This document shows, piece by piece, positions 2,597 through 57,501 of a stretch of DNA of 64,000 nucleotides. The position numbers and the translations under genes are program-made. The stretch covers positions 1 to 64,000 of the IMG/VR virus record IMGVR_UViG_3300043788_000023. The stretch is one strand, 5' to 3'. Source of the DNA: a virus. Under the pieces are notes generated by a model that saw only the letters and a program-made list of their open reading frames with translations, did not search any database and was not told where the DNA came from. How positions within the stretch are numbered: the stretch's first letter is position 1; every line of letters begins with the position of its first letter.

Positions 2597-2607
2597 AAGG
2601 GGAACCA

Positions 2608-2982
2608 GTGAAGTCCGACCGTACCCTCCTCGGCTGGTATACGTACATCAACGAACGCTTCTTTGACGGCGTGTGCCCCGACCGGGTGTGCGTGCGCTGG
2701 GCTGACCCGGATGAGACGGAAAGCCGTACTTGGGAGACAAAGTACTTCGGCGAGGCTTCCGAGGCGCTGGACGACGAGTACCACGACTACCAGATCATCA
2801 TGAGCAAGCCCCTCAACAAGCAGTGGATCGTCCGAACCTCCACGTTAGTTCATGAAATGATTCATCTTGCGACCGGATTGAAGGACGACCACGGCCCGGC
2901 TTTTGAGCGCTGGCGGATCAAGCTTGGTGAGCGGGGTATCTTCAAGAAGCACGCCCTGCGCAAGGGCTACACCCTATTCTAA
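2608..2982 (+). CDS. SprT-like zincin metallopeptidase
   Basis: TLVHEMIH...HGPAF motif; N-terminal YINERFF typical of SprT-like proteins. Confidence 0.8.
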   Translation: MKSDRTLLGWYTYINERFFDGVCPDRVCVRWADPDETESRTWETKYFGEASEALDDEYHDYQIIMSKPLNKQWIVRTSTLVHEMIHLATGLKDDHGPAFERWRIKLGERGIFKKHALRKGYTLF

Positions 2983-3000
2983 CCCCTCCAAAACCTCCTG

Positions 3001-3020
3001 ACTTTTCCCCTTATAATCAG
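3001..3020 (+). promoter_or_regulatory. Putative late-promoter motif ACTTTTCCCCTTATAATCAG
   Basis: Fits the 20-nt motif and also contains TATAAT; ends 7 nt before ATG 3028. Confidence 0.45.
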
Positions 3021-3027
3021 AGGGGTT

Positions 3028-17500: not shown

Positions 17501-19505
17501 GAGCAAGTACGTGCTGCCCACTGCCCTCGCACTTACCGGGCTGGGTGTGGGCGCTCCGCCAGTGCATCCCGGCAAGGCGACCCCTCAACAGATTGAACAG
17601 CGTGAACAAGCGGAAACTCCGGTTGAACAGGAGAAACAACCTCTTGATCCTGCGGACGTGACGGCTGCGTTGCGCACCGCGTCAAAAGCCACGGGCATAC
17701 CGCTGGCTGTTCTCTCCGCTATTGCACACAACGAGACAAGCTACGGGCTGGACGTTTCCCAAGGCGGCAGCGGTTCAAACGGGTTCATGCAGATGACGCC
17801 GGACGCCCTCGCAGAAGTGAACAAGGTCTACGGCACTGACTACATCATTGAGGACATGGATGACCCGGATACCGCTGCACTTGCGGCTGCACAATACCTG
17901 CATATCCTCTTGAAGAAATTTAGCAGGAATCTGGACGCTACAATCGCCGCATACAACACCGGACCAGCGCATGTCAACAAGGTGCTGGCGGATTACGGCG
18001 AAGTCACGCCGGAGACTCTCGCTGCCGCTGGTCACCAGCTTACATCAACCTATCTCCAAAAAGCGAAAGCCCGTATGGCTCCCAAGACAGGGGAGTGGAT
18101 CAAGAAGGCAGCGGGTTTTGTGTTCAAATCCTTCAAGAAGCTGTGGCACGTTGGCACGATGAATCCGAAGGACAAGCGTGACGACAGCTACGAGGGCGCA
18201 GGGCTGTCTGTCAGCGTCAACCCCGACGAGTGGCAGATGATTGCGAAGATCGGCGGTGACCTGTGGGAACTCACCAAGGCTGGCAACAAGTTTGTCAACT
18301 TCCACCGTTTGAACAAGGCGCAGCGGAAGCAGATCGCAGACTGGGGCATCAAGAACGGGTACGCCCAGCCTGCGAGCCTCTGGCGGCACTCATGGTTTGA
18401 TGACGAACTTGACGACGTGCGCTACTCCGACTACGTCACGAAGGAAGAAGCTGAGGCTGAACTTGGCGGCTACGGCGGGGACGAGAAGGTTGAACCCGTG
18501 AAGGGTGGGCTTACAGCCACGCCCAAGCTATCGCAAAAGTCCAAGCGTGGCAAAATTGACCCGCTTGAGGTGATAGACCTGCTTGTGACGGCGTACGCCG
18601 AGGACGAGCTTGACTGCGACGGTGTATGGTGGGCTGACGACCTTGACCCTGACAATCTGTCAGCACCACGAGGCGTGATCTTCCCGTCCAAGCTCTCGTC
18701 ATGGAAAAAGAGGAAGGTACAGTCGGCAGCAAAGACCGCAGCGGAATGGAAGAAGCTACCCCCAACGGCCGAGTGGATTCAGAAGGCGAAGCTATTCCTA
18801 AAGGACAAATGGGCGGAACGGCACAAGGAGCTTCAGCGTGAGGGTGTGCCGACAGACCTCAAGGGCGCATGCAAGTTCGCCTCGCTGTTCGCTTACAAGC
18901 TCTTCGGTGGAAAGATGGTCGGCACGGCGGAACATCAAGCCCTAAGCTTGGGAGGCGGTACGATACTTGACTTGACAGACCTCTTCAACCCCAACACGTT
19001 CAGCCACGACAAGAAGTTTTGGATGAACCCAGAACATGCAGAGTCAATGAAGTCAGTTGAGCCTCGTGTGAACCAGTGGGTGGACGAGTTCTTCCAGAAG
19101 TATTGGCAGGACTACTTCAAAACCCACACCTCGGCGAAGGAAGTCTACCTGTACCATGGCACCAATGACGAGCGTGTCCCCAGCATTCTGAAGGATGGTA
19201 TGCCCGCAGGAAGTTATTGGGGTACGGCGGAAATGGCGGACTGGTTTGCCAAGGGAGCTTCGGAAGAAGAGGGCATGCCCGTAATCTTCCGTGTGCCGCT
19301 GAGTCGCTTCAACACGTCTGCTTTGGCGATAGACAACGTCGCCATTCAGGAACCAATCACCGAGGCTATTGGGCGGAACGAAGAGGAATTGTACGCAGAA
19401 TGGGAAGCTGTACCAGGTGAGGGGACGTGGCAGGACAGCCTCCGAATCTATCACTCTGTGAAGTACAACGCCCCTATGAAAGTCACTGAAAAAGACCTCC
19501 TGTAA
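11547..19505 (+). CDS. Giant polyvalent protein B (2652 aa): about 7 ART-like domains, 3 Cys-His modules, ParB-like, Nudix, GNAT, Zn ribbon, nucleotidyltransferase, SLT transglycosylase
   Basis: Repeated [WFY]YHGT/YHLS/WHVG ART starts and one YR..SSWS..EQE ART; Nudix GG..SAKKEMAEETG (~15120-15190); GS..DLD nucleotidyltransferase (~17185-17230); ETS..GFMQM..AAYNTG SLT (~17700-17965). GTG start overlaps the upstream TAG and has AAGGAG 8 nt upstream. Confidence 0.9.
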   Translation: MRWYHGTSKQNAEKILKEGVLKPGEHSVYREDVPRYDAVYLTSDWQIAKYYSEERGKDGVVLEIAANESKLMPDEDSVYDALHEGAVSLGGKANKRLGQAIREEWFKYWKSIDGEGDTFEEAWEAWSNVEAEGSSGIAEEMKALTEEIHEKNPALSKAIIKASGKAAHIGPAKVVGIAKKAAKKVKLVKTPGFVIEVPQERRTKFFVRPKAPLEYWAFKNRPRVFINEPLIFTFGGKPVAQAVVVRVEAPGKGEGEYKHWHKVYWKPTSFKKFKVTAAENPKVLYHLSRRTNRQSILKSGLLPLLKEYKDIERAPGVYFFQSLAAAKDYGFFHAQFINQATDIWECRIPEGYKLYRDPHPEMAEFDAWMSHDVLPPKNLKVVDTILVSNSTEDAPPRYKGTKASLLKSAKVKLPTFEQVVSKDPNNEFNLVNDYEHGVADMWEDRSLNNMREYYDEVAPKLANLKFPLTVYRCYALKEGNKVDYKSLGSSWSLSSRAAYLASHEMFNDEEYEQHKVITGVLQSPDGVDWVNTVRAWMTLPEEQEIRLKPGAQVKVQGKVRTATSKKFYHGTKKKNLEDIMKNGLKVAMSEAHTEWNHAIYLACDVYTAANYEGMHGGGEPWVIFEIDGRKLNEYYMRPDDYDFPDLWAQEGREENWAHQTWQTSLKMSCQIAYLADIPASAIKVYEGKTRFASGDDSELKGDMTENPDYYMTEGCGIYAVDFARKNGGEIYVLAAERGDQWSEEIPYEVTHAFVKKDGKTYDIRGERTPDKMAWELSMGEYSVKGPWTPDAFEAKFMGDTDDKPLFGNTAALGDQHHHADDIPTPLRTVLKRPAVIDWYSDSPDVAGKPKLIDIDPKTLLTDQATVSKSHLDKILANINKINEPTPSTSEEHSAHPMVLGTSEGDFIFDGNHRCAAALMKDLTIKVLYLDLTPIEDRVPELYLGEEDGTGVKSAAAKLPKGWRVTIKGEAVPGSPYPYYWGHLWKDNQFYGTCGVGSEYRDKAREAAIDWAWQASGQERPKTAAEDTQTFYHGTTWEAAKDIDKTGIKANKWKFGPGKFVWVTIHPGQAYEYGQSISWHELDQPERSAVVEFEWPYKESEPDPEHEPHGDMYRRIPSDIPRSAIRKIQWFEKGKIVKTANLKSADHVNEEGYWAGEGNAASGVLAVCPSKGTVCFAWRSSEVMSPNCWGTIGGAVQKDMSPQQSAKKEMAEETGYSGGITLTPAYVFTDRGFSYHNFIGVVSNEFTFNPSEGFGWETDHIVWVPYQEALEDMQANPGDYHPGVLKLFANSKDVIERALKIKKTAWKEIAWSDKEGDLMGGILESAADLKAWASPSMDDELFAMYMEMFKRKRVAVIDAMNAWNPGQGKGTEMLERFIAEARAKNCDAIVLESGNAPNQFDIHAWYQEYGFRDFGTADGMPLMVKWLKPGKKKSADEEIIKSVTPEIDKPYIDEGEWQRINKWLISLQWRGRNPWYPEKFPWFCIRLFSDGWVASNDLMKETLAEGKDLASLKKYLSEFAKEYRTSLDALRTPPYKTLDMQTDALTKRGAFDPSWMKRWVEGDCWLFALALSHRMPDATFVGLEKKNVVHHVGLKKGDRYFDVRGEMEADEFNYGADADEPYEIVPMDYEQVMRDGEYSSWIGHEDEFNALPEMKQAEKAVRRVFGQRKDAAGVMESRQPCPSGKRKFYDERSAIGPHKKWDEGTPNLRAYQCPKCGWWHLTSKPQRQPVMAGEFDESNRLYEESVANEGKAPQNRGLYEGKPFWSGIADVADGSIIEVHTYEEAERGDFHHSFYVSHSSQQMMKEGDYAFFWIDEDGGRSAVQVEWPTANQDVKIPPDLAKRISSHIQFRKTAAAHTPEYAQKLIETLKQTVHEADFRVIGSVGAGGTSENDLDIMVDIHPNAAFDDDKAWIETSGLVGAMKLMGFDNIDTSEFSPEESVEKSETSGKYLDPQGSSIEKFFNPTTHHTVEFWFAESGMEKEADWKSKYVLPTALALTGLGVGAPPVHPGKATPQQIEQREQAETPVEQEKQPLDPADVTAALRTASKATGIPLAVLSAIAHNETSYGLDVSQGGSGSNGFMQMTPDALAEVNKVYGTDYIIEDMDDPDTAALAAAQYLHILLKKFSRNLDATIAAYNTGPAHVNKVLADYGEVTPETLAAAGHQLTSTYLQKAKARMAPKTGEWIKKAAGFVFKSFKKLWHVGTMNPKDKRDDSYEGAGLSVSVNPDEWQMIAKIGGDLWELTKAGNKFVNFHRLNKAQRKQIADWGIKNGYAQPASLWRHSWFDDELDDVRYSDYVTKEEAEAELGGYGGDEKVEPVKGGLTATPKLSQKSKRGKIDPLEVIDLLVTAYAEDELDCDGVWWADDLDPDNLSAPRGVIFPSKLSSWKKRKVQSAAKTAAEWKKLPPTAEWIQKAKLFLKDKWAERHKELQREGVPTDLKGACKFASLFAYKLFGGKMVGTAEHQALSLGGGTILDLTDLFNPNTFSHDKKFWMNPEHAESMKSVEPRVNQWVDEFFQKYWQDYFKTHTSAKEVYLYHGTNDERVPSILKDGMPAGSYWGTAEMADWFAKGASEEEGMPVIFRVPLSRFNTSALAIDNVAIQEPITEAIGRNEEELYAEWEAVPGEGTWQDSLRIYHSVKYNAPMKVTEKDLL

Positions 19506-43581: not shown

Positions 43582-45726
43582 TTACCTTCTTCCCCGCCTG
43601 CTCCAAGGGCTTACAGGGTTGGCTCCAGAGTAAGAAGCGTTGTGTTGTTGGGCTTTTTTGAGCTTCTCCATGATCTTCAAGACCTGCATGGGAATGCCGT
43701 CCATGCCGATTAGCGGAACCGGGGGCTTGGTAGCTTGGGACTGCATGAGCAGGCTGAGACCGGAGGGGTCCATCATCTGACCCTGTTCCAGCAACCAGCG
43801 CTGGGCGAGGAAGGCGCAGAGCATGGCAGCGTCCGCCATGTCGTCGTGAGCACCCTTTTCCTGTGGTGCCGCGACACGGATGCGGTACTTGGCGGCGACC
43901 TCAAGTTCAACAAGCTTCAGTTCTTGGATGAACTTTGGCACGTAGGGGAAAGAGCAACGTTCGGACTCAATATAACCACGCAGGGCGTACGCCATTTGCG
44001 AGTTGATCGCGGGTGTCAAGTTGACCAATTCAAAGTTCCTGATCTTCTTCAGTTCAAGAAGCTGGACAAGCTGCTGACCTCCGTGTTGGTCGGTTGCACC
44101 CTTGAAGCACGGAAGAATCTTGTTCATCTCATCCATCCACGCAAGGATGTCCTCAAGCGGGAGAACTTGGTAGTTGGAGTACTTGCCTTGCCCGATGCCC
44201 TGCTTGACGCCGGGCCACACACCATCTTCGCCGACCATCATGCGGTCAATGTAGTCGTACACCAGTTTGATCGTGCCGCCAGGTCCGCCAGGTTCAAGGT
44301 GGGCGATAGCGAGCGCCGATGCGTCATTGGTCATGCCAAGGTCAAAGCCCCAGAAGTAGTTCCTACCGACCTGTATCTGGGAGAAACGCTCAAGGTTGAG
44401 GCGTGCGCTGCTCATAACAGGCAAGCCCTTTTCGTCCCACTGGCAGTCAGTACACTTCTTGACGGAAGCCTCGGTCACGTACGATTCAGACGACTCAAGG
44501 AACTTGCCGCCGTACTCAGCCCTGAACGTGAGCGGGTTCTTCTTGTACTCGGACTTGAGGAACTTTGAGAGCAGCTTCGGGTTCATCTCAGCGCTTGGGC
44601 AGTTGAGTGTGAAGATCGGAGAGTCAGTCTTCATGCCTTCTTCCAGCGCCAGCTTGTGAAGCTCGTACATCTTACCGATCCTCTTCAGGGGCGAAGAGAT
44701 TGACAGAATCATGGAGTCTTGAATACCCACAGCCTCATTCTCGCCTTCAAATTCAAGGTTAGGCTCGGTGCCTTCCGCTTCTTCAAAGCGCACGTTGGAA
44801 TCTCCACCGAAGTCAGTGCCCATCGGCTGCTCGGGAAGATCGCTAGACTTCACTTCTTTTTCGTGGTGGAAGTCTGCGGTTGACGGTGAGGCGGCGGCGT
44901 ACATGTCGTCCGACGTTGATCCCTTTGCTGAACGGAAGTGAGCGAACTCGTCAAGCGCAAGGAAGATGGACGACGGCGAACGCACGGCGTTCGTGGTGCA
45001 AGGTAAGCACGACACGGTAACCGTGGGCGTGGACTCCTGCTTCTCACGGTCAGAGAGTGTGACGAATGCCAAGTCCTTCGCGTTGGTGTCCTTCAGGTAC
45101 GGGGCGAAGAAACTCTCAGCCTTGAGCACCTGTTCACGAAGCTTTTTGAATAGACGGTGAGCACCGTTCTCGTCCTGCGCAAGGAAGGTGAAGTCAATGA
45201 TGGAGCCGGGAAACAGACCGAAGTGCTCCTGTGGGGAGCGGATGTTGAGCAGCAGATACAGCTTGTACGCAGCAATAGCGGCAACCAATTCCGATTTGCC
45301 GCCACGGCGTCCGGCGAAGATGCAAGCCTCGTTGAAGCCCGCTTCTCCGGGTATGCCCCCCATGTTGGGAATCTCACGCCAGTCGTTGACGTTGCAGCGC
45401 TGCTCGTTGTAGGCGATGTGAAGGTACTCTTCCTCGGTCACATCGGCGTGTTTCTTCTTCTCACGGTACACGTCGTACATCGGTACCATGCCCCAGCCGG
45501 GGATGCGGGTCGCCCAGTCAGGCTTGTAGTCAAAAGGGACGCCGTAGATGCACTTGACGATGACCCGCTGCACGGGACGCAGAACGATGCCGATACCGCC
45601 CGGACCCTCAATGAAATCAATGGCATTTTGCAGCTTTGATGGGTCTTCAATACTCGCAGCGATAGCCTGCCCGAAGACGGAGTCTTTGGCGGATTTGCCG
45701 AAACGTTTGTTCCTAGAGATAGCCAT
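43582..45726 (-). CDS. terL: Terminase large subunit
   Basis: Walker A GRRGGKS, Walker B LALDEFAHF, coupling ISSP, nuclease GFDLG..ND and HDDMADA. Confidence 0.9.
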   Translation of the reverse strand: MAISRNKRFGKSAKDSVFGQAIAASIEDPSKLQNAIDFIEGPGGIGIVLRPVQRVIVKCIYGVPFDYKPDWATRIPGWGMVPMYDVYREKKKHADVTEEEYLHIAYNEQRCNVNDWREIPNMGGIPGEAGFNEACIFAGRRGGKSELVAAIAAYKLYLLLNIRSPQEHFGLFPGSIIDFTFLAQDENGAHRLFKKLREQVLKAESFFAPYLKDTNAKDLAFVTLSDREKQESTPTVTVSCLPCTTNAVRSPSSIFLALDEFAHFRSAKGSTSDDMYAAASPSTADFHHEKEVKSSDLPEQPMGTDFGGDSNVRFEEAEGTEPNLEFEGENEAVGIQDSMILSISSPLKRIGKMYELHKLALEEGMKTDSPIFTLNCPSAEMNPKLLSKFLKSEYKKNPLTFRAEYGGKFLESSESYVTEASVKKCTDCQWDEKGLPVMSSARLNLERFSQIQVGRNYFWGFDLGMTNDASALAIAHLEPGGPGGTIKLVYDYIDRMMVGEDGVWPGVKQGIGQGKYSNYQVLPLEDILAWMDEMNKILPCFKGATDQHGGQQLVQLLELKKIRNFELVNLTPAINSQMAYALRGYIESERCSFPYVPKFIQELKLVELEVAAKYRIRVAAPQEKGAHDDMADAAMLCAFLAQRWLLEQGQMMDPSGLSLLMQSQATKPPVPLIGMDGIPMQVLKIMEKLKKAQQHNASYSGANPVSPWSRRGRR

Positions 45727-46188: not shown

Positions 46189-46545
46189 TTACCGTCCGTT
46201 GCCCAGTTTGCCAAGCACTGAAGCGACGTGTGCTTGCGCATCGGCGAATTCTGTGTCCCAGCTTGACTCACGCACGACGGCTTGCTTGCGACCAAATCCA
46301 TCAACGTGGCGGATCATGCCCCCAGTGCGCATCGTGCGTGTCGGGGACTCATTCTGATCTTGAAAGGACATCGGGTCTTCAAGCCAAAGCTCAACGACCG
46401 CTTCTTCCTCTTCAGAACTGACAGCGGACTCAAGGAAGTTATCAGCCTCGTCCACCACGTCTTTCCAGTGACGAAACTCAACGGGGTGACCGTCAGCGAC
46501 GGCTCCGGTCTTAACGAAGCCGGAACCTGTGATGCGAACGATCAT
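46189..46545 (-). CDS. Hypothetical protein
   Basis: ATGA coupling in the operon. Confidence 0.7.
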   Translation of the reverse strand: MIVRITGSGFVKTGAVADGHPVEFRHWKDVVDEADNFLESAVSSEEEEAVVELWLEDPMSFQDQNESPTRTMRTGGMIRHVDGFGRKQAVVRESSWDTEFADAQAHVASVLGKLGNGR

Positions 46546-46841
46546 ACGCGGGTCTCAAGCTCCTTGATGATCTCCTCAAGGGTGAACTGCGCCTTGTAGG
46601 GCATCTCGGACTGAATCTTGCGAGCCTCAGCATTGATCTGCGTCAGAACCTCACGGACGATCTTGTCCACGAGCGGCTTGAACTCGGGGTAGCGCTGCAA
46701 TCCCATTAGCGGCTTGCTTTGTTCAGACGTCTCCAAGCCCTCTGGTGCCTCGGAAGAGTAATCCGCCTGCTTGGTGTGGCGAGCGATTGCCTTCTCGGCT
46801 TGTTTGCGGATTATCTCCGCCCGTGCTGTCAGGTCTGCCAT
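46542..46841 (-). CDS. Hypothetical protein
   Basis: 99 aa; contains KQAD motif. Confidence 0.7.
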   Translation of the reverse strand: MADLTARAEIIRKQAEKAIARHTKQADYSSEAPEGLETSEQSKPLMGLQRYPEFKPLVDKIVREVLTQINAEARKIQSEMPYKAQFTLEEIIKELETRV

Positions 46842-46842
46842 G

Positions 46843-49800
46843 TTACTCCCTTGTACCGCAGACGAACTTGTACTTCATAACCAGAGAATCGGTGTCAATC
46901 GTTTCCGGGCGAACGAACACTTCGTACACGAATCCGCCCTCCGGGTTGTCGTTCCACACCGCAGCTTGCGCCCAAGCTTCGTTGATCGCAGCCTTGATGT
47001 CGCCGTCGTTGAGCTTGTCCATCAGCCACTTGACACGACCGCCCTGCGTGGTCTGACCCGGAGGCAGGATCGCTCCAGTGCCCTGTTCAATGATGTCAAG
47101 TTGAAGCTCGCCCATGCCCGGCACCTTGTCAAGCAGCGGGCGTGTCGTGACCTTGAACGCTGCCACGAGTGTGGCTGCGATCTCACCGCAAACCTTCTTG
47201 AGGAACAGAGCGAACTGTTTCGTCTCGTCGCCCTCGGCCGCCGTCTTGGATGCTACTGCCATCGCAGCGCCGGGGATGCCCTCGTACTGACCGTAGAATT
47301 CGTCCGTGAACATCGCACCACGGATGTCGTTCTCCTTGCGGAGAGGCGCACCTTCCAGAACTTCAGGCTTGCCGTCACGTCCGATGCCCATTCCGCTTGC
47401 GGGTGATGTGGATGAATAGTCTGCCGCTGCCATGGCGAGAGGTTCAACTTCGCCAACGTCAGCAGGAAGCTGAATCATCTCAACGATGTTGGTGTCAAGA
47501 GCTTCGTCAAGAATGCCCTCAAGTTCGTGACCGCCGTCGCCGACGATCTCAGGTGCCCCAGCGCCACTCATCGGCTGGTTGGTTGCGTTCGGATAGTCCA
47601 CGATCTCGTGCTGGATTTCCGGGTAGAATTCCTTCACCACTTGTCCGGGGAAGAAGAAATTGAAGCCTGCTTCCTTCTCAACCTGTTCTTCTGTCTTTGC
47701 CATACCGTCTCCTGCCTTTTTCACGCCGCTGCCTCCCGCCATATAGGCTTCCTCGTCCCAGCGCATGCCGTACTGTGCGAGGATTCGTTCGGACTCTGCC
47801 CGGTCAGGACCGCCCATGACGTTGACCATGGGGTCGGGCATCTTCATCGTTTGGATCGCGATCTGAAGTTGGTGCCACTCAGGGCTGCCCTTTTGGGGCA
47901 TGCTCTTTGCCGAAGTGACACGAACGGTCGTGTTCTTGAGGGAGGATTGTACCTGCTCAAACTCCTCAAACTTCTTGCCCTTGGTCCCAGCGCCCAGCGT
48001 GTCGTAGAACATGTAGGTGTCGCTTTCGGGCGTGTAGTCCACCTGCAAATTCAAGGCTGCTGCAATGTCCATCATGAACGACGGAAGCTGTTGTTCAAAG
48101 GAGTCCATGTAGCCCTGCGGGTTCTTCCTCTTCAACTCTTGGAAGTGATCGTTGAGCTTGTTCGCAACCACTTCTGGGGTGAGCGGGTTCTTCGCATCAG
48201 CATTGATACGTGTCTCAACAGAGAAGGCTACCTTGCCAACCTTGTATGCCTTCTTGACGGATGCGCTGTACATCTTGTTCGCGGGCCAAGTCTCAAAGCG
48301 AATCGCCGGGTATCCGTTGACCTCACCACGCATTGCCCACGTGAAGTCCTTGGTATTGTGCTCCGGGTCCAGTGTCGGGTAGTGCTCACGGGCTTCTTCG
48401 AGATTTGAGAACACCTCGTAGCCCTTATCACCGACAACTTCCACAAGCATCTCGTAAGACCAGCCCTTCCACTCCGCAGTCTTGACGGAAGCCTTGAGGC
48501 TCCAGCGCATCTGCTTGTGTGCGAGCACGCCTTCTTTCAGAAGCTCGTTGAGGATCGGCCAAGAAAGGTTGGTGTACTTGCCACCACCGAGTGCCTTCTC
48601 AATCTCACCTGTGGTCTTCGCACCGTGACTGAGAATCTCCAGCACAAGGTTGCGCTTCGCCGGGTCGGCTGCTGCCTTCTTTGACTCTTTCCTGAACTGA
48701 ATTTCAATGGACTCACTTGAAGTGCCCGGCTGAACTTCAGTTGCTCCTTGAGCGCAAGCATCGAACAAAGCATTGGATGCCGCTTCGCCCTTATGCTTCC
48801 TCATGATCTGTTTCACCAGACGGTCGTAGGACCCCTGATCCATCAACTTCCAGTAGCGAAGTTCTTGACCGCCAAACGCCCCCTTCGGATTGTGGTAGCC
48901 TTTGACCAGCACTTGACCTTCGGGAATTCCCGGCAGCGCTCTCTGGTGCCGCATGGTAGTTACCGAGTTGACAGGCTTCTTTGGCTCACGGGCACGCATA
49001 CGATCCTGTTTTTCCTGCACGGACTCAACCTGACCCATGTCAATCTCTGCTGTCTTGATGGCAGCCTTCTTTGACGATTTCTTTTGGTCGGAGTTCCACC
49101 CGCACTTGCACTGGTAGGACTCTTCGTGATTTGACTTCGTCGCTTCCTTGCCGCAGCGTGGGCACTTCATTGAGAAGCCGCCTGCGGTCTTGCCAAATTT
49201 CGTAGAAGCGTTCTTGATGAAGGTACTTGCTTCCTTGAACGTAGAGAACGAAGCCTGACGCTGCGTTCCACGGAATGTGAATCCCACATGGAACTGCGGT
49301 CCTTCAAGGTCTGTACCGCCGAACATACCGCCGCCCTGACCGGATGTGATCTTGCTGTCATCCTCACCACCGATGGGTTCGGCAGCTTTCTTAGCGCCGA
49401 CGTTGATGATGATCTGTGTGCCGGGCTTTGCGGAAACCTCAGTCGCCGGAGCCTCGCCGTTGAGCTTGGCTTCCGATTGCTCCACCGCATGATTGACCTG
49501 ATCTTGCTTGACGTCAATAGGCTTGCCAACTTCCATCTCCGCCTGTGTCTCAATTGCCTCACGGATCGCGTTCACGTTCTGGCGCTCCGGGGACTTGATG
49601 CCGCCATCAGTCACGGGGACGCCGCTCTCCTCGTGTTGGTTCGCATTGAGTTCGTCGTTGGAGGCTCCTGCTTCCGGTCCCTCAATGTGGGCTTGACCGT
49701 ACGCGTTCTCAATCGGCTCCATCATCTTGGAAAGTTCGCCGTCGCTGTGTATCAGTTCTGCCGCCAAGATGTGAACCGTCTCGCTCCAGTTCTCGTCAGC

Positions 49801-50400
49801 AAACTTAATCTTGGCTGAACTTGTCTTTGAGGAGGCTGCTTCCCCGATCTCGGCTTCGTACGGCTTCTCGTAGTGGGGCAGTCCCAGCGCCGTCAAGTGC
49901 TTGCACTTGCGGTGACCGATCCAACCAGGGCAGTCGCAGCCCCAGTAGCGCCTGCTCTTGTTCTGCGCGATGGTGTAGAGCCTTCCCGAAGACTCGGACT
50001 TGATGTAAAAGCGGTTCGTCCAGTTGGTGTTGTCGGGCAGCAGTTGTCCATCAAACTCACGACCGTTGATGACTATGGCTGCCGGGTTGAACGGCGTGTC
50101 GTCCGTGGTCTTCGGCGGTTTCCTAGCACGTGGCGGTTTGCCCTCGGATTGAGATCGTGGCGTTTGGTACTGTTCCTTAGGCTGATACGACGGAGCGGGG
50201 GCTTTCTTCTCCGCTGCTGGCTGGGACGAGGCTGACGGGACGGCGATGTTGAGGGGCTTCATGCCAGCAGAGACACGCATCTCATTGAGGGCGTCAATCT
50301 CTTCCTGCTCGACCGGGTGTCCTTCAGTGAGCTTCCACATCAGCGTCTTCGTGAAGACGGTGATTGCCTTGCTCATGTCCGCTATTTTGTGCTGGCTCAT
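46843..50400 (-). CDS. Large modular protein (1185 aa), probable virion or head protein; SWIM Zn finger, Zn ribbon and wHTH-like modules
   Basis: WGCDCPGW..CKHL; CPRC..CKCG; LEILSHGAKTTGEIEKALG; many KxA linkers; operon upstream of the terminase. Confidence 0.75.
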   Translation of the reverse strand: MSQHKIADMSKAITVFTKTLMWKLTEGHPVEQEEIDALNEMRVSAGMKPLNIAVPSASSQPAAEKKAPAPSYQPKEQYQTPRSQSEGKPPRARKPPKTTDDTPFNPAAIVINGREFDGQLLPDNTNWTNRFYIKSESSGRLYTIAQNKSRRYWGCDCPGWIGHRKCKHLTALGLPHYEKPYEAEIGEAASSKTSSAKIKFADENWSETVHILAAELIHSDGELSKMMEPIENAYGQAHIEGPEAGASNDELNANQHEESGVPVTDGGIKSPERQNVNAIREAIETQAEMEVGKPIDVKQDQVNHAVEQSEAKLNGEAPATEVSAKPGTQIIINVGAKKAAEPIGGEDDSKITSGQGGGMFGGTDLEGPQFHVGFTFRGTQRQASFSTFKEASTFIKNASTKFGKTAGGFSMKCPRCGKEATKSNHEESYQCKCGWNSDQKKSSKKAAIKTAEIDMGQVESVQEKQDRMRAREPKKPVNSVTTMRHQRALPGIPEGQVLVKGYHNPKGAFGGQELRYWKLMDQGSYDRLVKQIMRKHKGEAASNALFDACAQGATEVQPGTSSESIEIQFRKESKKAAADPAKRNLVLEILSHGAKTTGEIEKALGGGKYTNLSWPILNELLKEGVLAHKQMRWSLKASVKTAEWKGWSYEMLVEVVGDKGYEVFSNLEEAREHYPTLDPEHNTKDFTWAMRGEVNGYPAIRFETWPANKMYSASVKKAYKVGKVAFSVETRINADAKNPLTPEVVANKLNDHFQELKRKNPQGYMDSFEQQLPSFMMDIAAALNLQVDYTPESDTYMFYDTLGAGTKGKKFEEFEQVQSSLKNTTVRVTSAKSMPQKGSPEWHQLQIAIQTMKMPDPMVNVMGGPDRAESERILAQYGMRWDEEAYMAGGSGVKKAGDGMAKTEEQVEKEAGFNFFFPGQVVKEFYPEIQHEIVDYPNATNQPMSGAGAPEIVGDGGHELEGILDEALDTNIVEMIQLPADVGEVEPLAMAAADYSSTSPASGMGIGRDGKPEVLEGAPLRKENDIRGAMFTDEFYGQYEGIPGAAMAVASKTAAEGDETKQFALFLKKVCGEIAATLVAAFKVTTRPLLDKVPGMGELQLDIIEQGTGAILPPGQTTQGGRVKWLMDKLNDGDIKAAINEAWAQAAVWNDNPEGGFVYEVFVRPETIDTDSLVMKYKFVCGTRE

Positions 50401-50408
50401 GGTTCCCC

Positions 50409-53400
50409 TTACTGTTCTTCTTCGTCTTCCACGAGTACGATGTCAGCTAGGTCGCCTGCGCCGAAGTCAAACTCAACTGACTCGGGCTGGCTCTCGCCAC
50501 ATGCTTTCTTATCCGCTGCAAAGTGATCCGGGTTGACCGTGTCGGTCGCTGCGGAGTCATCTGCCACGTCCGCCTTGTTATAGTCCACTTCGGACTTCGC
50601 TTCGCTCATGTCACCGCTGATGTCTGCGGCGAGCTTAGGCATCTGCATGCCAGCCGCAAGACCCTTGCGGGTCATGAAAGCCTTGATCGGACCCATCGCC
50701 TTCGCGATAGACTTGTCGTTAATCAAGGGCGAAGTCTCTGGGAATGACTGACCACGCTTGGCGTTCATGCCTTGCTCAATCAGTGTCATAAGCTGTCCGC
50801 ATGCTGCAACTGGAGCACGCCAGTAAGCCCAGCCATCGCTGTGGCTGTTGACCTGATCCTTGAACTCGTTCAAGAAGCGTACTGCCTTCCCGAGAACGGG
50901 GTCATTGCCGAGGACACGCAGAGCGTCCTCAATGTCGTAGTCGTTCATGAAGTGCAGCGCCGTCTTGTCCGAGGATTCCTTGGACTTGTGGCAGTCCTCG
51001 TTCACTTCGGCGTTCCAGCGGATACCGCAGTCTGCGCAGCGTCCATCTTTCCACTCGTGCTTGCCAGCAATTTTCACAGAGGCACCCTTCTGGAACTCGG
51101 CGTCTGCAACAGCCTGCGCATCACTGGTCGTCAGCCCTTCCAACTCCAGTTCATGCACCCGCTTGGCGTAACCGGGCGGGTCGTTGGGGGCATCCATGAA
51201 TTCCTCTTCAAACTCCTGCTGAGGAACTAGCTCGGGATGTTCCTTGACGCACTTGGCGCATAGTTCGCCTTCTTCCAACTTAATGGCTTCACGCTCGTCG
51301 GCGAGTTCGCCGCAGTTGTGGCACGTGATGCTGTGCTTGTCAACCCAGCTTGGCTGATCCTGAGACCAGTCTTCATGCGGTTCACGCAAGTGCATGCCCA
51401 ACGAGGGAAGGTCTTCCGCTGTCTTCTTACCAGCTTCCTCAACCGAAACGGTCGGGTGCTGAATGTCCTTGTCAACCGTGTCCGGGCTTACGGTCTCAGC
51501 TTTCGCTTCAGCCGCATCGCCTGAGATGTCTGCGCCGGACTTTTGCCCCGGAGGCGGTGCATCGGGTCCGGTTGTGTCCTTGATCTCCGCATCGGTCTTC
51601 GGCTGGATGATGCCCTCGCCGCCCTTCCAGTTTGCCGGGTTGTCTGCGGTGTCGGCTTTCTTACCGCTGCCAAGCCGTTCCTGACCCGGCGCTGGCTTGC
51701 CCTTTTTCACACGCACGATGTTCCGTTCGTTGACGAGTCCGGGCGTGCCGTGCCGTCCGCCCATGTTGAGTACCCAGCCGCCCGGTTCAGCCGAGTGCAT
51801 GACTGCTGTTCCGGTTGCTTCCTTCCACTCTTGACCGCCACGTCCCATACCTGCGGGGATCATGATCGTGACACGGTCGCCGTGCTTGATAGACTTCAAA
51901 AGCTGTTCGCGGTTGATCATCTCGTCTTCGTAGAGACGCTTCACGCCGCCAGCCTGCTTGATGTCTGCGCCAGCTTCCGGCTTCGGACGATCAGTTCCTT
52001 CCGAACGCTCGGTGTTGTAGTCCTGATGGCATTCAACTGTGTCGCTCGGCCCGTTCTCTTTCGTGGACGGGTTCGCTGCGCTGTCAATGTCGTAGCCGTT
52101 GTCGGCCGTGTCGGCTTTCTTCTCAACAGAACCGTAGCGAGCTTCGTCCGCTTCGTCCATAACCGGGGCGGAGCAGCACGGATCGTCCTCGTCAACCTCC
52201 ATGCCGCACTCAAAGCACTCACGCTGTGGAATCCACATGCCGTTCTCGGAATCCCAACGTGCGCCCATGTTAGGGCATCCGGTCTCGTGGCAGGGTGTGC
52301 CGTTGATCTGCATCATCTCGCACTGGTCGCAGCCCATGCGAGGAAGTTCTTCCTCGCTCTCAATCTCGCCTGCTACGTCTTCAACGAAGTCGGCGTACTT
52401 GGCATTGATGCCCCACGAAGATTCGTGGTGCTCTTCTCCCTGAGTCGGAGCATTCTCAAGGTCGGTCTCCTGAGACTCGGCTTCGCTGTCGGAGATTTCC
52501 TTCTCGTCTTCCGGTTCGGTGCTGCGGAACGCCTCGGGGAGGTCTTGCACGTCCTTCTTGTTCGGACGTCCCTTCGGTGTCTCGCTCTCGCTGCCTTCTC
52601 CCGTGGTCTCACTCCAGCCGCCCTGATCTTCCGTGTTGGAAGGAGCCGGGTTGCTGGGGTCGGTGTCAACGTCCACGAGCGGTGCTGGACCCATGTCCTC
52701 GGTGATCGCATCCCAGATGGAATCAATGTCAAGCTCAACCGCTACCTTCGGGCGGAACTTGTCAAGCAACGATTCCTTCTTAGCACGAGCCTGCTTCGCC
52801 TTGTGCGACATTGCCACGGTCGGCTCGTCAATCTCGGTCGCAACCACGTCAGCGACGTAGCTCGCCATGATTTCCACGTTGGAGCGCTTCGTCTTTGACG
52901 GAATCTCGGCGCTGCCCCACTTCTCGTTAGACCTGCGGGTGAGCGGGTCTTCACCGTATCCGCCAGCCGCAATCTCTTTCTTGTGATCGGCTGCTGCGTG
53001 CGGTGCGTACTCGTCATTGTTCCCCATCTTGTCGGTGATGTAGTCCTTCACCTTCTGGGGCGGCATGTTGTGCTTGTCAACGAACCCACCGTTGTATGCG
53101 GCGCTGTAGGCGCTGGACAGACGGGTCGGGTCTACACGCAACGTTTCCGGGTGAGCGGAGTTGCGCTGACGATTGCTCGGGTTGTTCGCTGCGGCTGCTG
53201 CCTTGCAGGTGCAGCCTTGGCATGAACACTCAGCGCCAGCCTTCTTGCAGCCTGGGCAGATGCCGTTTGCGTCAATGTGTGCAACCTTCTTGCCGACCTT
53301 GGACTCGTCCGCCTTACTGCGCGGTACACCAGTCTCGTCAACGGCGATTCCGATTGGGTCGCCATCCACCTTGCGGTGTTCTGGATCGTCTTCCCCGACG

Positions 53401-54449
53401 CTTTCCTTCATCGCGGGAGCGGAGGCTTCCTGCTCGGCGTGAGCTTCGGTGCCAGGCCCGACGTTCGTGAACGGGGTCTCGTGCGGTGCGCAAGCTTCCT
53501 TCTCCTTGGAACCGAACGGAGGAGCCTGCTTTCCACCGAATGCCTCGGCAGAAGCTTCACGGGGCACGCCCGGCGTCGCTTCCGGTGCCTTGAATCCGCC
53601 CTCGCCCTGTGCGCCATCGGCGCTGGGCAGTAGGGAGTTCTCAAGCGCTTCGTTCAGGGAGTCAAACACATCAAGTTCCTGAGGGTCAAGCGTCTGCTTG
53701 GTGATGTCGTCGGCAGTCTTCCTGTTCAGGAGGATCGTCGCCTTCTTGTAGCTTCCCTGCTTCTCAAGCTGCGGGAACTGCTTCAGCGGGTTCTCGGTCA
53801 GAAACGGGTAGGACAGCTTCGGCGTGATGTCGGTGACATCCACCTTGGTTGTGTCCACGTTGGTCATCAGCGCGTTGAAGGCGCTGGAGACTGACGGGTT
53901 GTAGTACGCTGAAAAAACTTGGTGGCGCAGGTTGTTCTTGAGTTCGTCTGCGTCCTTGCTGAAGTGGAAGCAGATGTACTCACGGGAGTTCATCCAGTTC
54001 GGAGCGAACACCACGAGGGATGCTTCCTCGCCTGTGCGGATGTCCTTGAAGAGTGATTCCTTGAGGGAGTCAAAGTCTGCTTGAGAGTACTCGTCAAATT
54101 CGGATTCGCCGATCTTCTTGTCAACCAAGTCAGCGATTTCCTCACCGCCCCATCCGAAGATGCGGACGAGAGCGCCATGAAGCAACGCTGTGGGGAAGTT
54201 CTTCTTGTCATTGCACACCTTGGCGGGGACGACCATGATGCGACCGAGGGAGATGTTGGCACGGAAGCCGTGGCAGAAGACTTCAAACGACTGGATGTTG
54301 CCGGACGAGCGGGCTTCCTTCTCGCCAGCCTGCACTGCCTCAACGACCTTAGCGAGGAGTTCTTCGCTGACCGTGAAAATCTGGTAGGACTTGCCAGCTA
54401 CGCTGTTGCCGCTGACGCCCGCCTTTTTCTTGATTTCCTTTGCCATCAC
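50409..54449 (-). CDS. Large acidic modular protein (1346 aa), probable head or scaffold-like polyprotein
   Basis: Globular N-terminal ~245 aa, then acidic and Cys-rich modules separated by KxA motifs. Confidence 0.75.
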   Translation of the reverse strand: MMAKEIKKKAGVSGNSVAGKSYQIFTVSEELLAKVVEAVQAGEKEARSSGNIQSFEVFCHGFRANISLGRIMVVPAKVCNDKKNFPTALLHGALVRIFGWGGEEIADLVDKKIGESEFDEYSQADFDSLKESLFKDIRTGEEASLVVFAPNWMNSREYICFHFSKDADELKNNLRHQVFSAYYNPSVSSAFNALMTNVDTTKVDVTDITPKLSYPFLTENPLKQFPQLEKQGSYKKATILLNRKTADDITKQTLDPQELDVFDSLNEALENSLLPSADGAQGEGGFKAPEATPGVPREASAEAFGGKQAPPFGSKEKEACAPHETPFTNVGPGTEAHAEQEASAPAMKESVGEDDPEHRKVDGDPIGIAVDETGVPRSKADESKVGKKVAHIDANGICPGCKKAGAECSCQGCTCKAAAAANNPSNRQRNSAHPETLRVDPTRLSSAYSAAYNGGFVDKHNMPPQKVKDYITDKMGNNDEYAPHAAADHKKEIAAGGYGEDPLTRRSNEKWGSAEIPSKTKRSNVEIMASYVADVVATEIDEPTVAMSHKAKQARAKKESLLDKFRPKVAVELDIDSIWDAITEDMGPAPLVDVDTDPSNPAPSNTEDQGGWSETTGEGSESETPKGRPNKKDVQDLPEAFRSTEPEDEKEISDSEAESQETDLENAPTQGEEHHESSWGINAKYADFVEDVAGEIESEEELPRMGCDQCEMMQINGTPCHETGCPNMGARWDSENGMWIPQRECFECGMEVDEDDPCCSAPVMDEADEARYGSVEKKADTADNGYDIDSAANPSTKENGPSDTVECHQDYNTERSEGTDRPKPEAGADIKQAGGVKRLYEDEMINREQLLKSIKHGDRVTIMIPAGMGRGGQEWKEATGTAVMHSAEPGGWVLNMGGRHGTPGLVNERNIVRVKKGKPAPGQERLGSGKKADTADNPANWKGGEGIIQPKTDAEIKDTTGPDAPPPGQKSGADISGDAAEAKAETVSPDTVDKDIQHPTVSVEEAGKKTAEDLPSLGMHLREPHEDWSQDQPSWVDKHSITCHNCGELADEREAIKLEEGELCAKCVKEHPELVPQQEFEEEFMDAPNDPPGYAKRVHELELEGLTTSDAQAVADAEFQKGASVKIAGKHEWKDGRCADCGIRWNAEVNEDCHKSKESSDKTALHFMNDYDIEDALRVLGNDPVLGKAVRFLNEFKDQVNSHSDGWAYWRAPVAACGQLMTLIEQGMNAKRGQSFPETSPLINDKSIAKAMGPIKAFMTRKGLAAGMQMPKLAADISGDMSEAKSEVDYNKADVADDSAATDTVNPDHFAADKKACGESQPESVEFDFGAGDLADIVLVEDEEEQ

Positions 54450-54458
54450 TTTTCCCCT

Positions 54459-54959
54459 TTACTTCTTGGAGTCGAGCTTCTCGACTTCGCGACGAATCTC
54501 TTCGTCTCTGGCAGACATGATGTCCCGCCAGTGGTTCAGGATGCTGTTGATGGTCGTCTCGTCAAGCTTGACCATCTTCATCGCTTCTTTCACGCACTCG
54601 GCGGTTTGACCCATGACGTACTTGAACTTCTTGCCGTCCAAGTTCAGGAAGTCCTTGTGGCTGAGTGTGTCAGCTTCCATGATTTCCTTGCCAAGTTCAC
54701 GGAGCGCTTTGACCTGCGTTTCGTATACCTTGACCTTCATGCCTTCAATCAAGTTGACATCGTTGCTGTACTTGATCATCAGCTTGCTGATTGAGGCGAT
54801 CTCTTCCGCGATGAGCCTCTTGATCTTCGCTGGAGGCGTCGTCTCGTCCTGAATCATGGAGATGATTTGACCCAGTTTGGAGTCACGCTCCTGCTCGGAC
54901 TGTTCCGGTTGACCGCTGACGTTACCTGCTTCGTCAATGTTTAGCTTCCACTCTTCCAT
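54459..54959 (-). CDS. Hypothetical helical protein
   Basis: 166 aa within the operon. Confidence 0.75.
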   Translation of the reverse strand: MEEWKLNIDEAGNVSGQPEQSEQERDSKLGQIISMIQDETTPPAKIKRLIAEEIASISKLMIKYSNDVNLIEGMKVKVYETQVKALRELGKEIMEADTLSHKDFLNLDGKKFKYVMGQTAECVKEAMKMVKLDETTINSILNHWRDIMSARDEEIRREVEKLDSKK

Positions 54960-54962
54960 GGC

Positions 54963-57182
54963 TTATTCCAAATCCACCTTAAAGTGATCGTTCATCTCCA
55001 CGTCGTCCCTCTTGGGTCCGCTCGTGTCAATGTCTTGCATTTCGTGCGATCCGGTCAGGTCAAACTCATTCAGTATTGCGTGACCGTCTGTCGCCTTCTT
55101 CTCTCCGGCGTGCTTCTCAAAGCCGGGGTACGACAAGAGGTGCTGGTCATCCGGCACCGATGCCACGACTTGCGTGACGGGGCGGCGCTGTGGGTCTAGC
55201 ATCCTCACCTGCTCGGGCTTGAAGCCAAGCTTGCCGACGAGGAATGCACGATCCGACTCGGATACGGCGATCTTGCCGGGGCGCTTCTTCATGTCTTCAA
55301 CGAAGCCCGCTACTGCCTTGCGAGCCTCAACTGATCCGACCTTGTTTGCTGCGCTCTTGTAAATCTTCGCAACGCTGTGCCCTGCTTGGTGCAGCGTGCG
55401 AACCTTGGCAGCAGTAACCGTGACTTCCTTGGTTTCTGCCTGCTTGCTGCGCACCTTGTCAACAGTGCTGCTGGCGAACTTCCCGCCAACACGCCCAGCC
55501 TTGGAGCTTGTCTTGCCGCTCTGCTGGTATGCCAGCAATTCCTGCTGGCTGATGGGCTGGACTTCACCGCACGAGGTGCAGAACACCTCGCCGTGCTCGT
55601 CATAGCTAAAGTCACGCTGATCGCCGTCGCAGTTCACGCACGGCCTGACGCTCTCTGCCGCTGCCTCTTCGTAGTCAACTACTGGAGCCAGCGCGTTCTT
55701 GTGGAATTCGCAGCTTGCACACTTTTCCTTGCCCTCGAAAGCCGCATTGCGGATTCCGATGCTGTTCAGGAACGACAAGTCCTTGCTTGCGACCACGATC
55801 TTGTCCTTCGCGTTCTTCCTGAGCGGTTGGACGAAGCCCCGGAACGCAAAGCTCACATCCACGCTTCCGAACTTCTCTTCTGCCCACTTGTAAATCTGCT
55901 CAAGCGATGCACCCTTGGCGTGCAGCTTAGCCACGTGCTCGGAGGAGAAGCGCTTGCTTGATTCACGATTGTCCCCGAAGTTGTAGCTTGCACGCTTGGA
56001 TTGATTGCGGACCTTGGCGTCTGCCGCCTTGACCACGTTGGTCTGCTCGGCGACCTTCGGGTTCTGCACCCGCTTGTCATCGCCGTTTGCGAGAACTACC
56101 AGCGCCGCGTGCTTCCTGTTGTTGGGTACGCCCGGCGTCAGGTGGTTCACGATCTGTGAAAGCTCCTCTGCGCTGGCTACGAGCGGGAGGTGGTACAGGT
56201 TGCATGTCTTGTTGCGTGCGTCCTTGTTGAAGTAGACGCAGCCATCGCATGCAGCGACTTGCTTCACGCTGTGTGCTTGTGGCTTGATGCCAGCACGATC
56301 CCACGCCTTCTTCTGTTGCACGCAGGCGTTGCTGGAGCCGACCTTCTCCACGGGCACTGAGCGATACTGCTCGTTGTCAAAACGGTAGTTAACTGGATCA
56401 GTTGAAGGTTCAACCCTCCAGTCGCTAGGCATTCCTGACCAGCGGGATGCCAACTCATTCGCAGCCTCTTCCGCTTCTTCTGCTGTTGCGAAGCGCTGTG
56501 CGTTTGAAGTGTTCTCCTCCATGACCACCTTGAAGCTGTTAGCAGTCTTGCTGCTAGCCGTGTGATCGTAGGTCGGGCTGGACTTGTCCATGTAGGTGTT
56601 CGGCTCAAGATACGCCAAACCCATCAAGCCAGCGTTGCGCTGGAGATAATCCGTTGCGGACTGGTGATTGAACAGTTCAATCTCCGCAAGCTTCTGAAGC
56701 TGTGCGGCGACCTTCGCCGGAGAATTACCTTGGTTGAGCAAGTCACGGATGTACTTGAACACATGCGCGTCTGAGACTTCTTTCTTGCCTGCGCTGTTCT
56801 CTGCGAGGTTGTTGTTGGTGTACGCCTTCTCAATGCTCTCGGTTACTTCGGTCATCAAGGAATCGTTGTCACCGTCCTTGGACTTGTAATCGTTCATGCG
56901 GCGGTTCGCCGTAACGGCATTGATGCGTGGTGTCGCAGCTTCCTTCTCAGCCATGCGCTCTTCGTAGGTGTGGGCACCGGACTTCGGTCCCCAGACCGGG
57001 GTGTGGCGGCTCGCCGATTCGGCGATGTCGTCTTCAAATTCGGTGTCCACGTACTGGTGTGACCAGTCCGCAACATCTTCGCCGGACTTCTTGGCGTCTT
57101 CCATGCCGAGGTCTTTCCAGTTCGGTTCACGCTCGTCAAGGATAGCGTCAATGATGTTCGTGTATGGTTTCTTGTCTGCCAT
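54963..57182 (-). CDS. Modular protein (~739 aa) with Cys clusters and duplicated helical module
   Basis: Start ATG 57182 after GGAG; repeated VxxLHxxGxSxxxIYK..GSV..F.GFV module. Confidence 0.75.
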   Translation of the reverse strand: MADKKPYTNIIDAILDEREPNWKDLGMEDAKKSGEDVADWSHQYVDTEFEDDIAESASRHTPVWGPKSGAHTYEERMAEKEAATPRINAVTANRRMNDYKSKDGDNDSLMTEVTESIEKAYTNNNLAENSAGKKEVSDAHVFKYIRDLLNQGNSPAKVAAQLQKLAEIELFNHQSATDYLQRNAGLMGLAYLEPNTYMDKSSPTYDHTASSKTANSFKVVMEENTSNAQRFATAEEAEEAANELASRWSGMPSDWRVEPSTDPVNYRFDNEQYRSVPVEKVGSSNACVQQKKAWDRAGIKPQAHSVKQVAACDGCVYFNKDARNKTCNLYHLPLVASAEELSQIVNHLTPGVPNNRKHAALVVLANGDDKRVQNPKVAEQTNVVKAADAKVRNQSKRASYNFGDNRESSKRFSSEHVAKLHAKGASLEQIYKWAEEKFGSVDVSFAFRGFVQPLRKNAKDKIVVASKDLSFLNSIGIRNAAFEGKEKCASCEFHKNALAPVVDYEEAAAESVRPCVNCDGDQRDFSYDEHGEVFCTSCGEVQPISQQELLAYQQSGKTSSKAGRVGGKFASSTVDKVRSKQAETKEVTVTAAKVRTLHQAGHSVAKIYKSAANKVGSVEARKAVAGFVEDMKKRPGKIAVSESDRAFLVGKLGFKPEQVRMLDPQRRPVTQVVASVPDDQHLLSYPGFEKHAGEKKATDGHAILNEFDLTGSHEMQDIDTSGPKRDDVEMNDHFKVDLE

Positions 57183-57183
57183 G

Positions 57184-57501
57184 TTAAAACTCCAGATCGT
57201 CGAGGATGTGCGCGAGGAACGCGGCGGGTCTGTCATCCGGTGCTGCTTGGATTGACTCGCCTTGATTAACCTCGTTGCCCACGAGCTTCACGATTCTGTT
57301 GCCCTGCACCTTCCAAAAGTCCTTCGTTGACGGGCACTCGTAGACGTTGCCTGCAACGCGGCGCATCATGTAGCTGTCAATTTCAAACTGCACGTCACGG
57401 GGGATTTCCATCATTGATGCAAAGTGGTTCTTTGAAAAGATGGACTCGTTGGGCTTCTCGCCCTTCAGACCGTGCGCTGTCTTTGAAAATACCTTTTTCA
57501 T
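57184..57501 (-). CDS. Hypothetical protein
   Basis: 105 aa; KTAH and RRVAG motifs. Confidence 0.75.
   Translation of the reverse strand: MKKVFSKTAHGLKGEKPNESIFSKNHFASMMEIPRDVQFEIDSYMMRRVAGNVYECPSTKDFWKVQGNRIVKLVGNEVNQGESIQAAPDDRPAAFLAHILDDLEF

Follow-up and report, generated by a model that had tools for sequence, protein, structure and literature searches.

In the phage genome fragment analysed here, three large proteins encoded directly upstream of the large terminase gene carry the tripeptide lysine-any residue-alanine (K-x-A) about 2.4 times as often as expected (67 vs 27.5, Poisson tail 1.5e-10). The fragment (the window, 64,000 nucleotides) corresponds to the first 64 kb of one contig of 169.6 kb from an uncultured soil jumbo phage, IMG/VR record IMGVR_UViG_3300043788_000023, and coordinates refer to the window unless marked "contig". 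The original prediction, that K-x-A punctuates the large proteins upstream of the terminase, thus described a real pattern. From the sequence evidence, we consider it probable that K-x-A is the P3-P1 signal of a family of head-maturation proteases and that the three proteins, of 757, 1346 and 1185 amino acids (aa), are prohead-internal substrates cut many times.

K-x-A in the three large proteins and their relatives

Expected counts were obtained by shuffling each protein, which keeps its composition. The 757-aa protein (54963-57236, minus strand) had 21 K-x-A vs 7.0-7.2 expected (z 6.0, the highest enrichment on the contig), the 1346-aa protein (50409-54449, minus strand) had 24 vs 10.9 (z 4.3) and the 1185-aa protein (46843-50400, minus strand) had 22 vs 9.7 (z 4.3); merging overlapping sites of the KKAA type left 64 distinct sites. 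The per-gene density check suggested with the original prediction, run over the 141 contig genes, ranked these three proteins as the top three. Among 1605 gapped dipeptides in the pooled proteins K.A ranked first (z 7.5, runner-up z 3.4), and the other spacings and orders (KA, K..A, K...A, A.K and the rest) gave ratios of 0.8-1.4. R.A, Q.A and E.A were not enriched in the three proteins, where E.A was observed 8, 8 and 10 times vs 10.8, 14.6 and 6.5 expected. A null built from the local 43-residue composition predicted 28.5 K-x-A in the pooled set, the DNA pattern AAR-NNN-GCN was enriched in the coding frame only (22/4/1, 24/8/0 and 21/1/1 by frame), all four Ala codons served at the sites, and BLAST found no internal sequence repeats in the three proteins. 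Composition, local composition, a DNA-level motif and internal repeats were each ruled out by these controls as the cause of the excess, and with the first two falls the explanation by Lys/Ala composition alone that the original prediction had named as grounds for refutation. The residue after K-x-A, which would be P1' if the cut followed Ala, was S, A, G, D, E or N at 43 of the 67 sites, vs a background of 45%, and the five-residue extension [LIFM]-x-K-x-A was not significant (13 of 67 vs 14.7%).

The K-x-A excess is a clade-wide property, about two-fold even in unconserved sequence, and we examined it on four independent sets. In the corresponding block of the acidobacterial jumbo phage Tunturi_5, whose TerL is 41% identical to the large terminase of the contig, gp348 had 18 K-x-A vs 7.3 expected and gp350 had 16 vs 9.0; the motif often reads K-x-A-S in this phage and K..S is enriched there. 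All 95 metagenomic homologues of the 757-aa protein had a ratio above 1 (median 2.3), and in the alignment of this family the unalignable regions held 350 K-x-A vs 121 expected (ratio 2.88), with a ratio of 2.08 in the conserved regions. The sites of this family are scattered over 74 columns of the alignment, each shared by a median of two sequences, and therefore sites turn over while the density stays. Across six related loci, 16 syntenic block genes had 285 K-x-A vs 147 expected, and 74 neighbouring genes had 77 vs 74. Further, when residues 1-300 of the 1346-aa protein served as the query of an exhaustive search, 106 cluster representatives were returned, with proteins of up to 1683 aa, and this domain stood at the N-terminus in all 106. 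When K-x-A was counted past residue 290 in 75 representatives (50% identity clusters, at least 600 aa), these variable parts had 958 vs 495 expected, with a ratio above 1 in 73 of the 75 and equal ratios across divergence tiers from the closest to the most distant third; in the 35 most distant representatives, K.A ranked first among gapped dipeptides (z 12.1).

All three proteins are chains of small modules parted by acidic or Pro-rich stretches, the modules including Cys-rich zinc-ribbon-like units, a SWIM-like CxC..CxH and a recurring helix-turn-helix (HTH)-like element. The 757-aa protein, with HTH-like and zinc-ribbon-like modules, is read from an upstream ATG at 57236; a conserved start at 57182, whose MADKK is visible in the family alignment, gives a form of 739 aa (54963-57182). 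It contains a duplicated HTH-like element (55806-55946 and 55272-55412; ..H.KG.S...IYK.A..K.GSV...A..GFV) and a looser third copy near residue 170; the copies hold three K-x-A sites and are the best-folded parts (predicted local distance difference test, pLDDT, 80-88) of an AlphaFold2 model of the 739-aa protein with a mean pLDDT of 56.6. In the 1346-aa protein the conserved part is an N-terminal domain (about residues 12-290), and the remainder is made up of variable Cys-rich or small modules with acidic linkers. In the 1185-aa protein the variable modules (SWIM-like CxC..CxH, zinc ribbon) come first, and the conserved domain, 44-84% identical in relatives, lies at the C-terminus (about residues 894-1185). 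Between these two constant ends, the modules of both proteins are shuffled non-collinearly among relatives (L002, L003, L008-L011) and are also swapped between the two genes, as for residues 638-718 of the 1185-aa protein, which match the other large protein in relative L011. Tunturi_5 gp350 (1080 aa, annotated "DarB-like") unites a 1346-type N-terminal and a 1185-type C-terminal domain. Of 52 module boundaries, taken as the ends of BLAST high-scoring segment pairs against relatives, 22 had a K-x-A no more than 8 residues away, where 13.7 were expected (P 0.008).

One module of the 1346-aa protein (about residues 1165-1277; 50661-50957 encode about 1165-1263) matches phrog_22197 and, at 31-38% identity, hypothetical proteins of about 95 aa that stand alone in Arthrobacter and Microbacterium phages; therefore at least one "bead" exists elsewhere as an independent small gene. 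PHROGs gave nothing else in the three proteins and Pfam gave no family above threshold; in 40 relatives Pfam found only DnaJ_CXXCXGXG, Anti-TRAP and DUF7249, in one member each. No enzyme or effector domain (methyltransferase, helicase, protease or other) was found in the three proteins or the 40 relatives, and no match was obtained in PDB sequence searches with the three proteins, in Foldseek with the 739-aa model or in the Atlas with the C-terminal domain of the 1185-aa protein. Two copies of the octapeptide KKADTADN are present in the 1346-aa protein (residues 777 and 930; 52098-52121 and 51639-51662); each follows a Gly/Ser-rich stretch, and they look like a duplicated linker carrying the motif.

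The three genes belong to a minus-strand block transcribed in the order 105, 757, 166, 1346, 1185, 99 and 118 aa, and this gene order recurs in Tunturi_5 and in four metagenomic jumbo-phage contigs. The conserved 105-aa protein (57184-57501, minus strand) opens the block and has one K-x-A at residues 7-9; the 166-aa protein (54459-54959, minus strand), with a syntenic counterpart of about 167-171 aa in relatives, lies between the 757- and 1346-aa genes and has 1 K-x-A vs 1.1 expected; the 99-aa protein (46542-46841, minus strand) has 2 vs 1.0 (not significant), and the 118-aa protein (46189-46545, minus strand) is encoded last. None of these four small proteins is individually enriched. The large terminase subunit (43582-45726, minus strand, phrog_9 and phrog_2 matches), directly downstream of the block, has 6 vs 4.1. 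The tetrapeptides listed in the original prediction are all present in the genes to which they were assigned; RVAG of the 105-aa protein, however, is not a K-x-A. The pattern claimed there for the 739-, 105- and 99-aa proteins holds for the first and does not extend to the other two, and the comparison with the tail fibres, which do lack K-x-A, is uninformative, the absence being trivial because they contain about 1% Lys. A tblastn search of the 169.6-kb contig with the portal protein of Tunturi_5 (gp7) found nothing at E 1e-5, and the contigs of relatives are 240-455 kb long; part of the genome may be missing from the contig, or the portal may have diverged strongly.

Head-maturation protease, capsid protein and other head-module proteins

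A 312-aa head-maturation protease is encoded outside the window (contig 85797-86735, minus strand; phrog_18299 match, E 1e-18), and its homologues Tunturi_5 gp331 and Bacillus phage G gp19 (PMC12484599) are likewise annotated as head-maturation proteases. This family, 477 protein clusters in one search, had 639 K-x-A vs 220 expected, nearly all of which lie outside the conserved core, within residues 1-60 on one side of it or in the C-terminal tail on the other. The pair K5/A7 was conserved in 97% and K43/A45 in 85%, inside flanks of 32-55% conservation; sites were conserved at residues 5, 43 and 55 and also in the C-terminal tail, where they shifted position. Phage G gp19, 28% identical to the contig protease (E 7e-18), showed the same layout: K-I-A stands at residue 9, K-T-A and K-I-A immediately precede the core, and K-V-A-S and K-I-A-S follow it. 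At the sequence level, the motif sites flank the catalytic core, as expected for autoprocessing.

The family holds invariant Ser and His residues. The fold model of the contig protease had a pLDDT of 54, and Foldseek gave no significant match. When 48,161 chains were searched with VIA-align, T4 gp21 (5jbl) came first (Z 3.6) and the varicella-zoster virus (VZV) protease third (Z 3.2), both too weak to trust, and the weak fold matches included the human cytomegalovirus (HCMV) protease beside that of VZV. The Atlas structural neighbours with Pfam families belonged to Peptidase_S78 and S77 and are leads only. The family also has an invariant Cys/His cluster (C182, C189, C192, C203, H205, C228, H230), and some sources label its members "uncharacterized Zn-finger protein"; a zinc-binding insert, to which this cluster may point, would be unusual in a prohead protease.

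The major capsid protein (319 aa, contig 81879-82838, minus strand; phrog_2522, E 1e-43) has its sole two K-x-A at residues 19 and 26, within the first 28 residues (LLKTA/GGRQKLA/AS, slashes after the motif alanines), and the capsid protein of Tunturi_5 has the same two. It shares 72% identity with the Tunturi_5 protein and 35% with gp27 of the 0.5-Mb Bacillus phage G; this kinship, together with that of the proteases (28%), ties the soil jumbo phages to the head lineage of phage G. The 120 capsid homologues listed are 83-97% identical, and N-terminal conservation within them is uninformative for that reason. A check for K-x-A at the end of the propeptides had been suggested with the original prediction; an N-terminal K-x-A is present in the capsid protein of the contig and missing from that of phage G. 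Of the seven K-x-A of the Tunturi_5 portal, three lie within the first 65 residues. The head/tail structural module includes an HNH endonuclease gene (108 aa, contig 80645-80971, minus strand) between the capsid-side genes and that of a 465-aa protein.

The motif, of P3-x-P1 type, is over-represented in head-module proteins and is absent as an excess in others. On the contig, the protease (7 vs 2.1) and a 1479-aa protein (14 vs 7.1) are also enriched, and weaker trends were seen in a 1952-aa (20 vs 13.3, p 0.05) and a 717-aa protein (15 vs 9.9, p 0.08). In Tunturi_5, gp332, which has the scaffold position, had 16 vs 5.6 and gp328, annotated "DNA ejection protein", had 19 vs 8.8; in phage G, gp21 had 7 vs 2.8.

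Proposed processing, competing explanations and the effector locus

Under the preferred reading, the head-maturation protease would recognise Lys at P3 and Ala at P1, with P2 free to vary, and would cut after the Ala, freeing itself by cutting its own flanks and trimming the N-terminus of the capsid protein. The 757-, 1346- and 1185-aa proteins would enter the prohead and be cleaved inside it at many of the roughly 64 sites. The products could be small domains that stay in the head or are injected, or else peptides that leave it like those of the T4 core proteins. Cutting at the motif, the head protease as the enzyme and entry into the prohead are inferred from T4, phiKZ and SPN3US. Cutting at all sites would leave fragments with a median of 28-47 residues, which would resemble the multi-site degradation of T4 core proteins and phiKZ propeptides at least as much as a release of folded domains. 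We regard as doubtful the more specific proposal that the three proteins are head-packaged "bead-string" polyproteins, with a constant N-terminal loading domain and about 20 shuffled small modules (zinc-ribbon, HTH and other, some with stand-alone small homologues in actinophages), which would be cut at K-x-A in the capsid and injected with the DNA as first-wave mini-protein effectors.

Several observations weigh against processing by the head protease. No cleavage has been observed in the lineage, the Tunturi paper containing no proteomics and the phage G paper (PMC12484599) no processing sites, and nothing places the three proteins among virion components. Phage G capsid protein gp27 has no N-terminal K-x-A, the contig homologue of the Tunturi_5 "ejection protein" is not enriched (7 vs 7.7), and the fold assignment of the protease is weak, given the Z scores and the model confidence reported above. 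In the 739-aa model the sites showed no preference for coil or low pLDDT, about half of them lying in helices or strands, and their hydrophobic context was the same as that of other lysines. Several sites are strongly conserved in predicted helices or between the cysteines of zinc ribbons, and three lie within the recurring HTH-like helix; conservation is slightly higher for motif lysines than for the remaining lysines (0.54 vs 0.41, p 0.05), and motif alanines show no such difference.

Some of these observations lend weight to two explanations in which the head protease plays no part. K-x-A could be a selected linear motif read by something else, either another protease (host or embedded) or a system in which the lysine would be bound or modified, for example in loading, DNA contact or cross-linking. 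A density kept under positional turnover would suit any linear motif, and both the indifference of the sites to exposed linkers and the lack of anything placing the three proteins in heads fit such a reader. However, the motif brackets the core of the head protease across 28-90% identity, it stands at the capsid N-terminus and is enriched in scaffold-position proteins, a combination that is the known signature of prohead-protease substrates (PMC9026906), and the searches of the three proteins and of 40 relatives turned up no other protease domain; we consider another reader unlikely. The excess could otherwise be a structural by-product, a functionless motif inherited with recurrent small folds (HTH-like helices, zinc ribbons) that have K-x-A in their consensus; three sites of the 757-aa protein do lie in a recurring "G-x-S...I-Y-K-x-A" element of HTH-like type, and the highly conserved sites within predicted helices, like the missing linker preference, fit such inheritance. 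Against this stand the lack of detectable internal repeats, an excess that is distributed over 74 columns and is greater where the family cannot be aligned, its persistence among unrelated variable cargo in 73 of the 75 distant representatives, and the occurrence of the motif in unrelated proteins (protease termini, capsid N-terminus, scaffold-position proteins); we therefore consider a by-product quite improbable.

The original prediction went further and proposed that the effector polyproteins 27 kb away are substrates of the same protease, which would link their locus to head morphogenesis. These polyproteins, of 2839 and 2652 aa (3028-19505), are encoded next to a 685-aa protein by three adjacent plus-strand genes (539-19505), and all three are polyvalent proteins; the Pfam domains of the two larger ones are ART-PolyVal, SprT-like, GNAT, 2H phosphoesterase, PARP/Tpt1, NUDIX and SLT, to which InPase and RelA/SpoT are added over the set of three. 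The 2839-aa protein starts with MSLLDKKTA, and a short leader ending in K-x-A is conceivable; the SLT lysozyme-like domain of the 2652-aa protein is typical of virion-borne proteins. However, K-x-A was at expectation in all three (6 vs 5.1, 12 vs 15.2 and 24 vs 20.9, respectively), no 300-residue window was enriched and neither was the relaxed motif, so that the motif does not support a tie between the effector locus and head morphogenesis. As a shared N-terminal leader, a K-x-A within the first 12 residues was found in 11 genes vs 7.3 expected by chance, which is not significant, and the 2839-aa protein has a SprT-like metallopeptidase domain of its own. We consider processing of this locus by the head protease very improbable. 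The proposal of one head protease for all thus keeps indirect support for the three large proteins, from the flanks of the protease, the capsid N-terminus and the clade-wide excess, and loses it for the effector polyproteins. Two kinds of giant protein are present in one genome: K-x-A-rich strings without known domains, and enzyme-rich polyvalent proteins without motif excess.

Comparison with known head proteases and significance

Previous studies established that T4 gp21 cuts at L/I-x-E in the scaffold protein gp22, gp67, gp68, internal proteins, Alt, gp23 and gp24, and that gp21 itself has a motif site at residue 9 and undergoes C-terminal processing (PMC9026906). The present system resembles that of T4 in having a three-residue P3-x-P1 code over-represented in proteins that would be head-internal, as the T4 core proteins that are cut many times, in a protease with motif sites near its own N- and C-termini, in motif sites at the N-terminus of the capsid protein, where T4 loses an N-terminal piece, and in the best structural match of the protease model being T4 gp21, though a weak one. 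It would differ in having Ala instead of Glu at P1 and Lys instead of Leu/Ile at P3, and its putative substrates, chains of 750-1350 aa made of shuffled small modules, have no counterpart in T4.

The proteases of the jumbo phages phiKZ (gp175), 201phi2-1 (gp268) and SPN3US (gp245) use S/A/G-x-E or A-x-E motifs with Ser favoured at P1' (PMC10052503, PMC9026906), the motif being S/A-x-E in phiKZ and A-x-E in SPN3US, and C-terminal autoprocessing is described for phiKZ gp175 and SPN3US gp245 (PMC9026906, PMC10052503). The likenesses to the contig are the jumbo-phage setting, many head-internal or ejection proteins, redundant sites per substrate (putative here), a small residue at the presumed P1' and, beside that autoprocessing, K-x-A in the C-terminal tail of the protease. 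In contrast, Ala would occupy P1 here, no sequence similarity is detectable between the proteases, and the capsid protein and protease of the contig are kin to those of Bacillus phage G and Tunturi_5. The processing site of phage P1 likewise lies after Glu (E120/S121, PMC9024508), and a motif that ends in Ala departs from the Glu rule of T4, phiKZ, SPN3US and phage P1 alike.

Herpesvirus assemblin (MEROPS S21) does cut after Ala, in pseudorabies virus (PrV) at YLQA/T and VQA/S (PMC4498786). The likeness would lie in Ala at P1, if the cut follows the motif, in a small or Ser P1' (K-x-A-S in Tunturi_5) and in a capsid-maturation protease released by self-cleavage on its flanks; unlike here, where P3 would be Lys, P3 is hydrophobic in assemblin, and assemblin substrates have few sites each. 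A P3-x-P1 grammar with a small P1', to which the K-x-A sites would conform, is shared by T4, phiKZ, SPN3US and the herpes assemblins (PMC9026906, PMC10052503, PMC4498786).

DarB of phage P1 is a giant antirestriction protein that is packaged in the head by means of an N-terminal capsid-targeting signal (PMC9024508). Like DarB and the polyvalent proteins of phages and conjugative elements, the proteins described here are very large, multi-modular and encoded near packaging genes, with a constant N-terminal domain and a variable remainder, and the constant domain of about 290 aa found in the 106 representatives is compatible with a capsid-targeting signal. Unlike them, the three proteins and their 40 relatives have no enzyme domain, and the true polyvalent proteins of this genome (3028-19505) have no motif excess. 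Bead-string delivery, if true, would differ from both the internal proteins of T4 and polyvalent proteins.

In the library searched, we found no paper pairing K-X-A, KXA or Lys-X-Ala with a prohead or maturation protease, and the phage head proteases whose rules we checked in papers (T4, phiKZ, SPN3US and phage P1) cut after Glu. If true, a Lys-x-Ala rule would represent a new specificity in a family of proteases that occurs widely among soil jumbo phages and has members in the cultured Tunturi_5 and the 0.5-Mb phage G. It would then be possible to read from sequence what these large heads contain after maturation, and a conserved block of three large "dark" proteins beside the terminase would join head biology.

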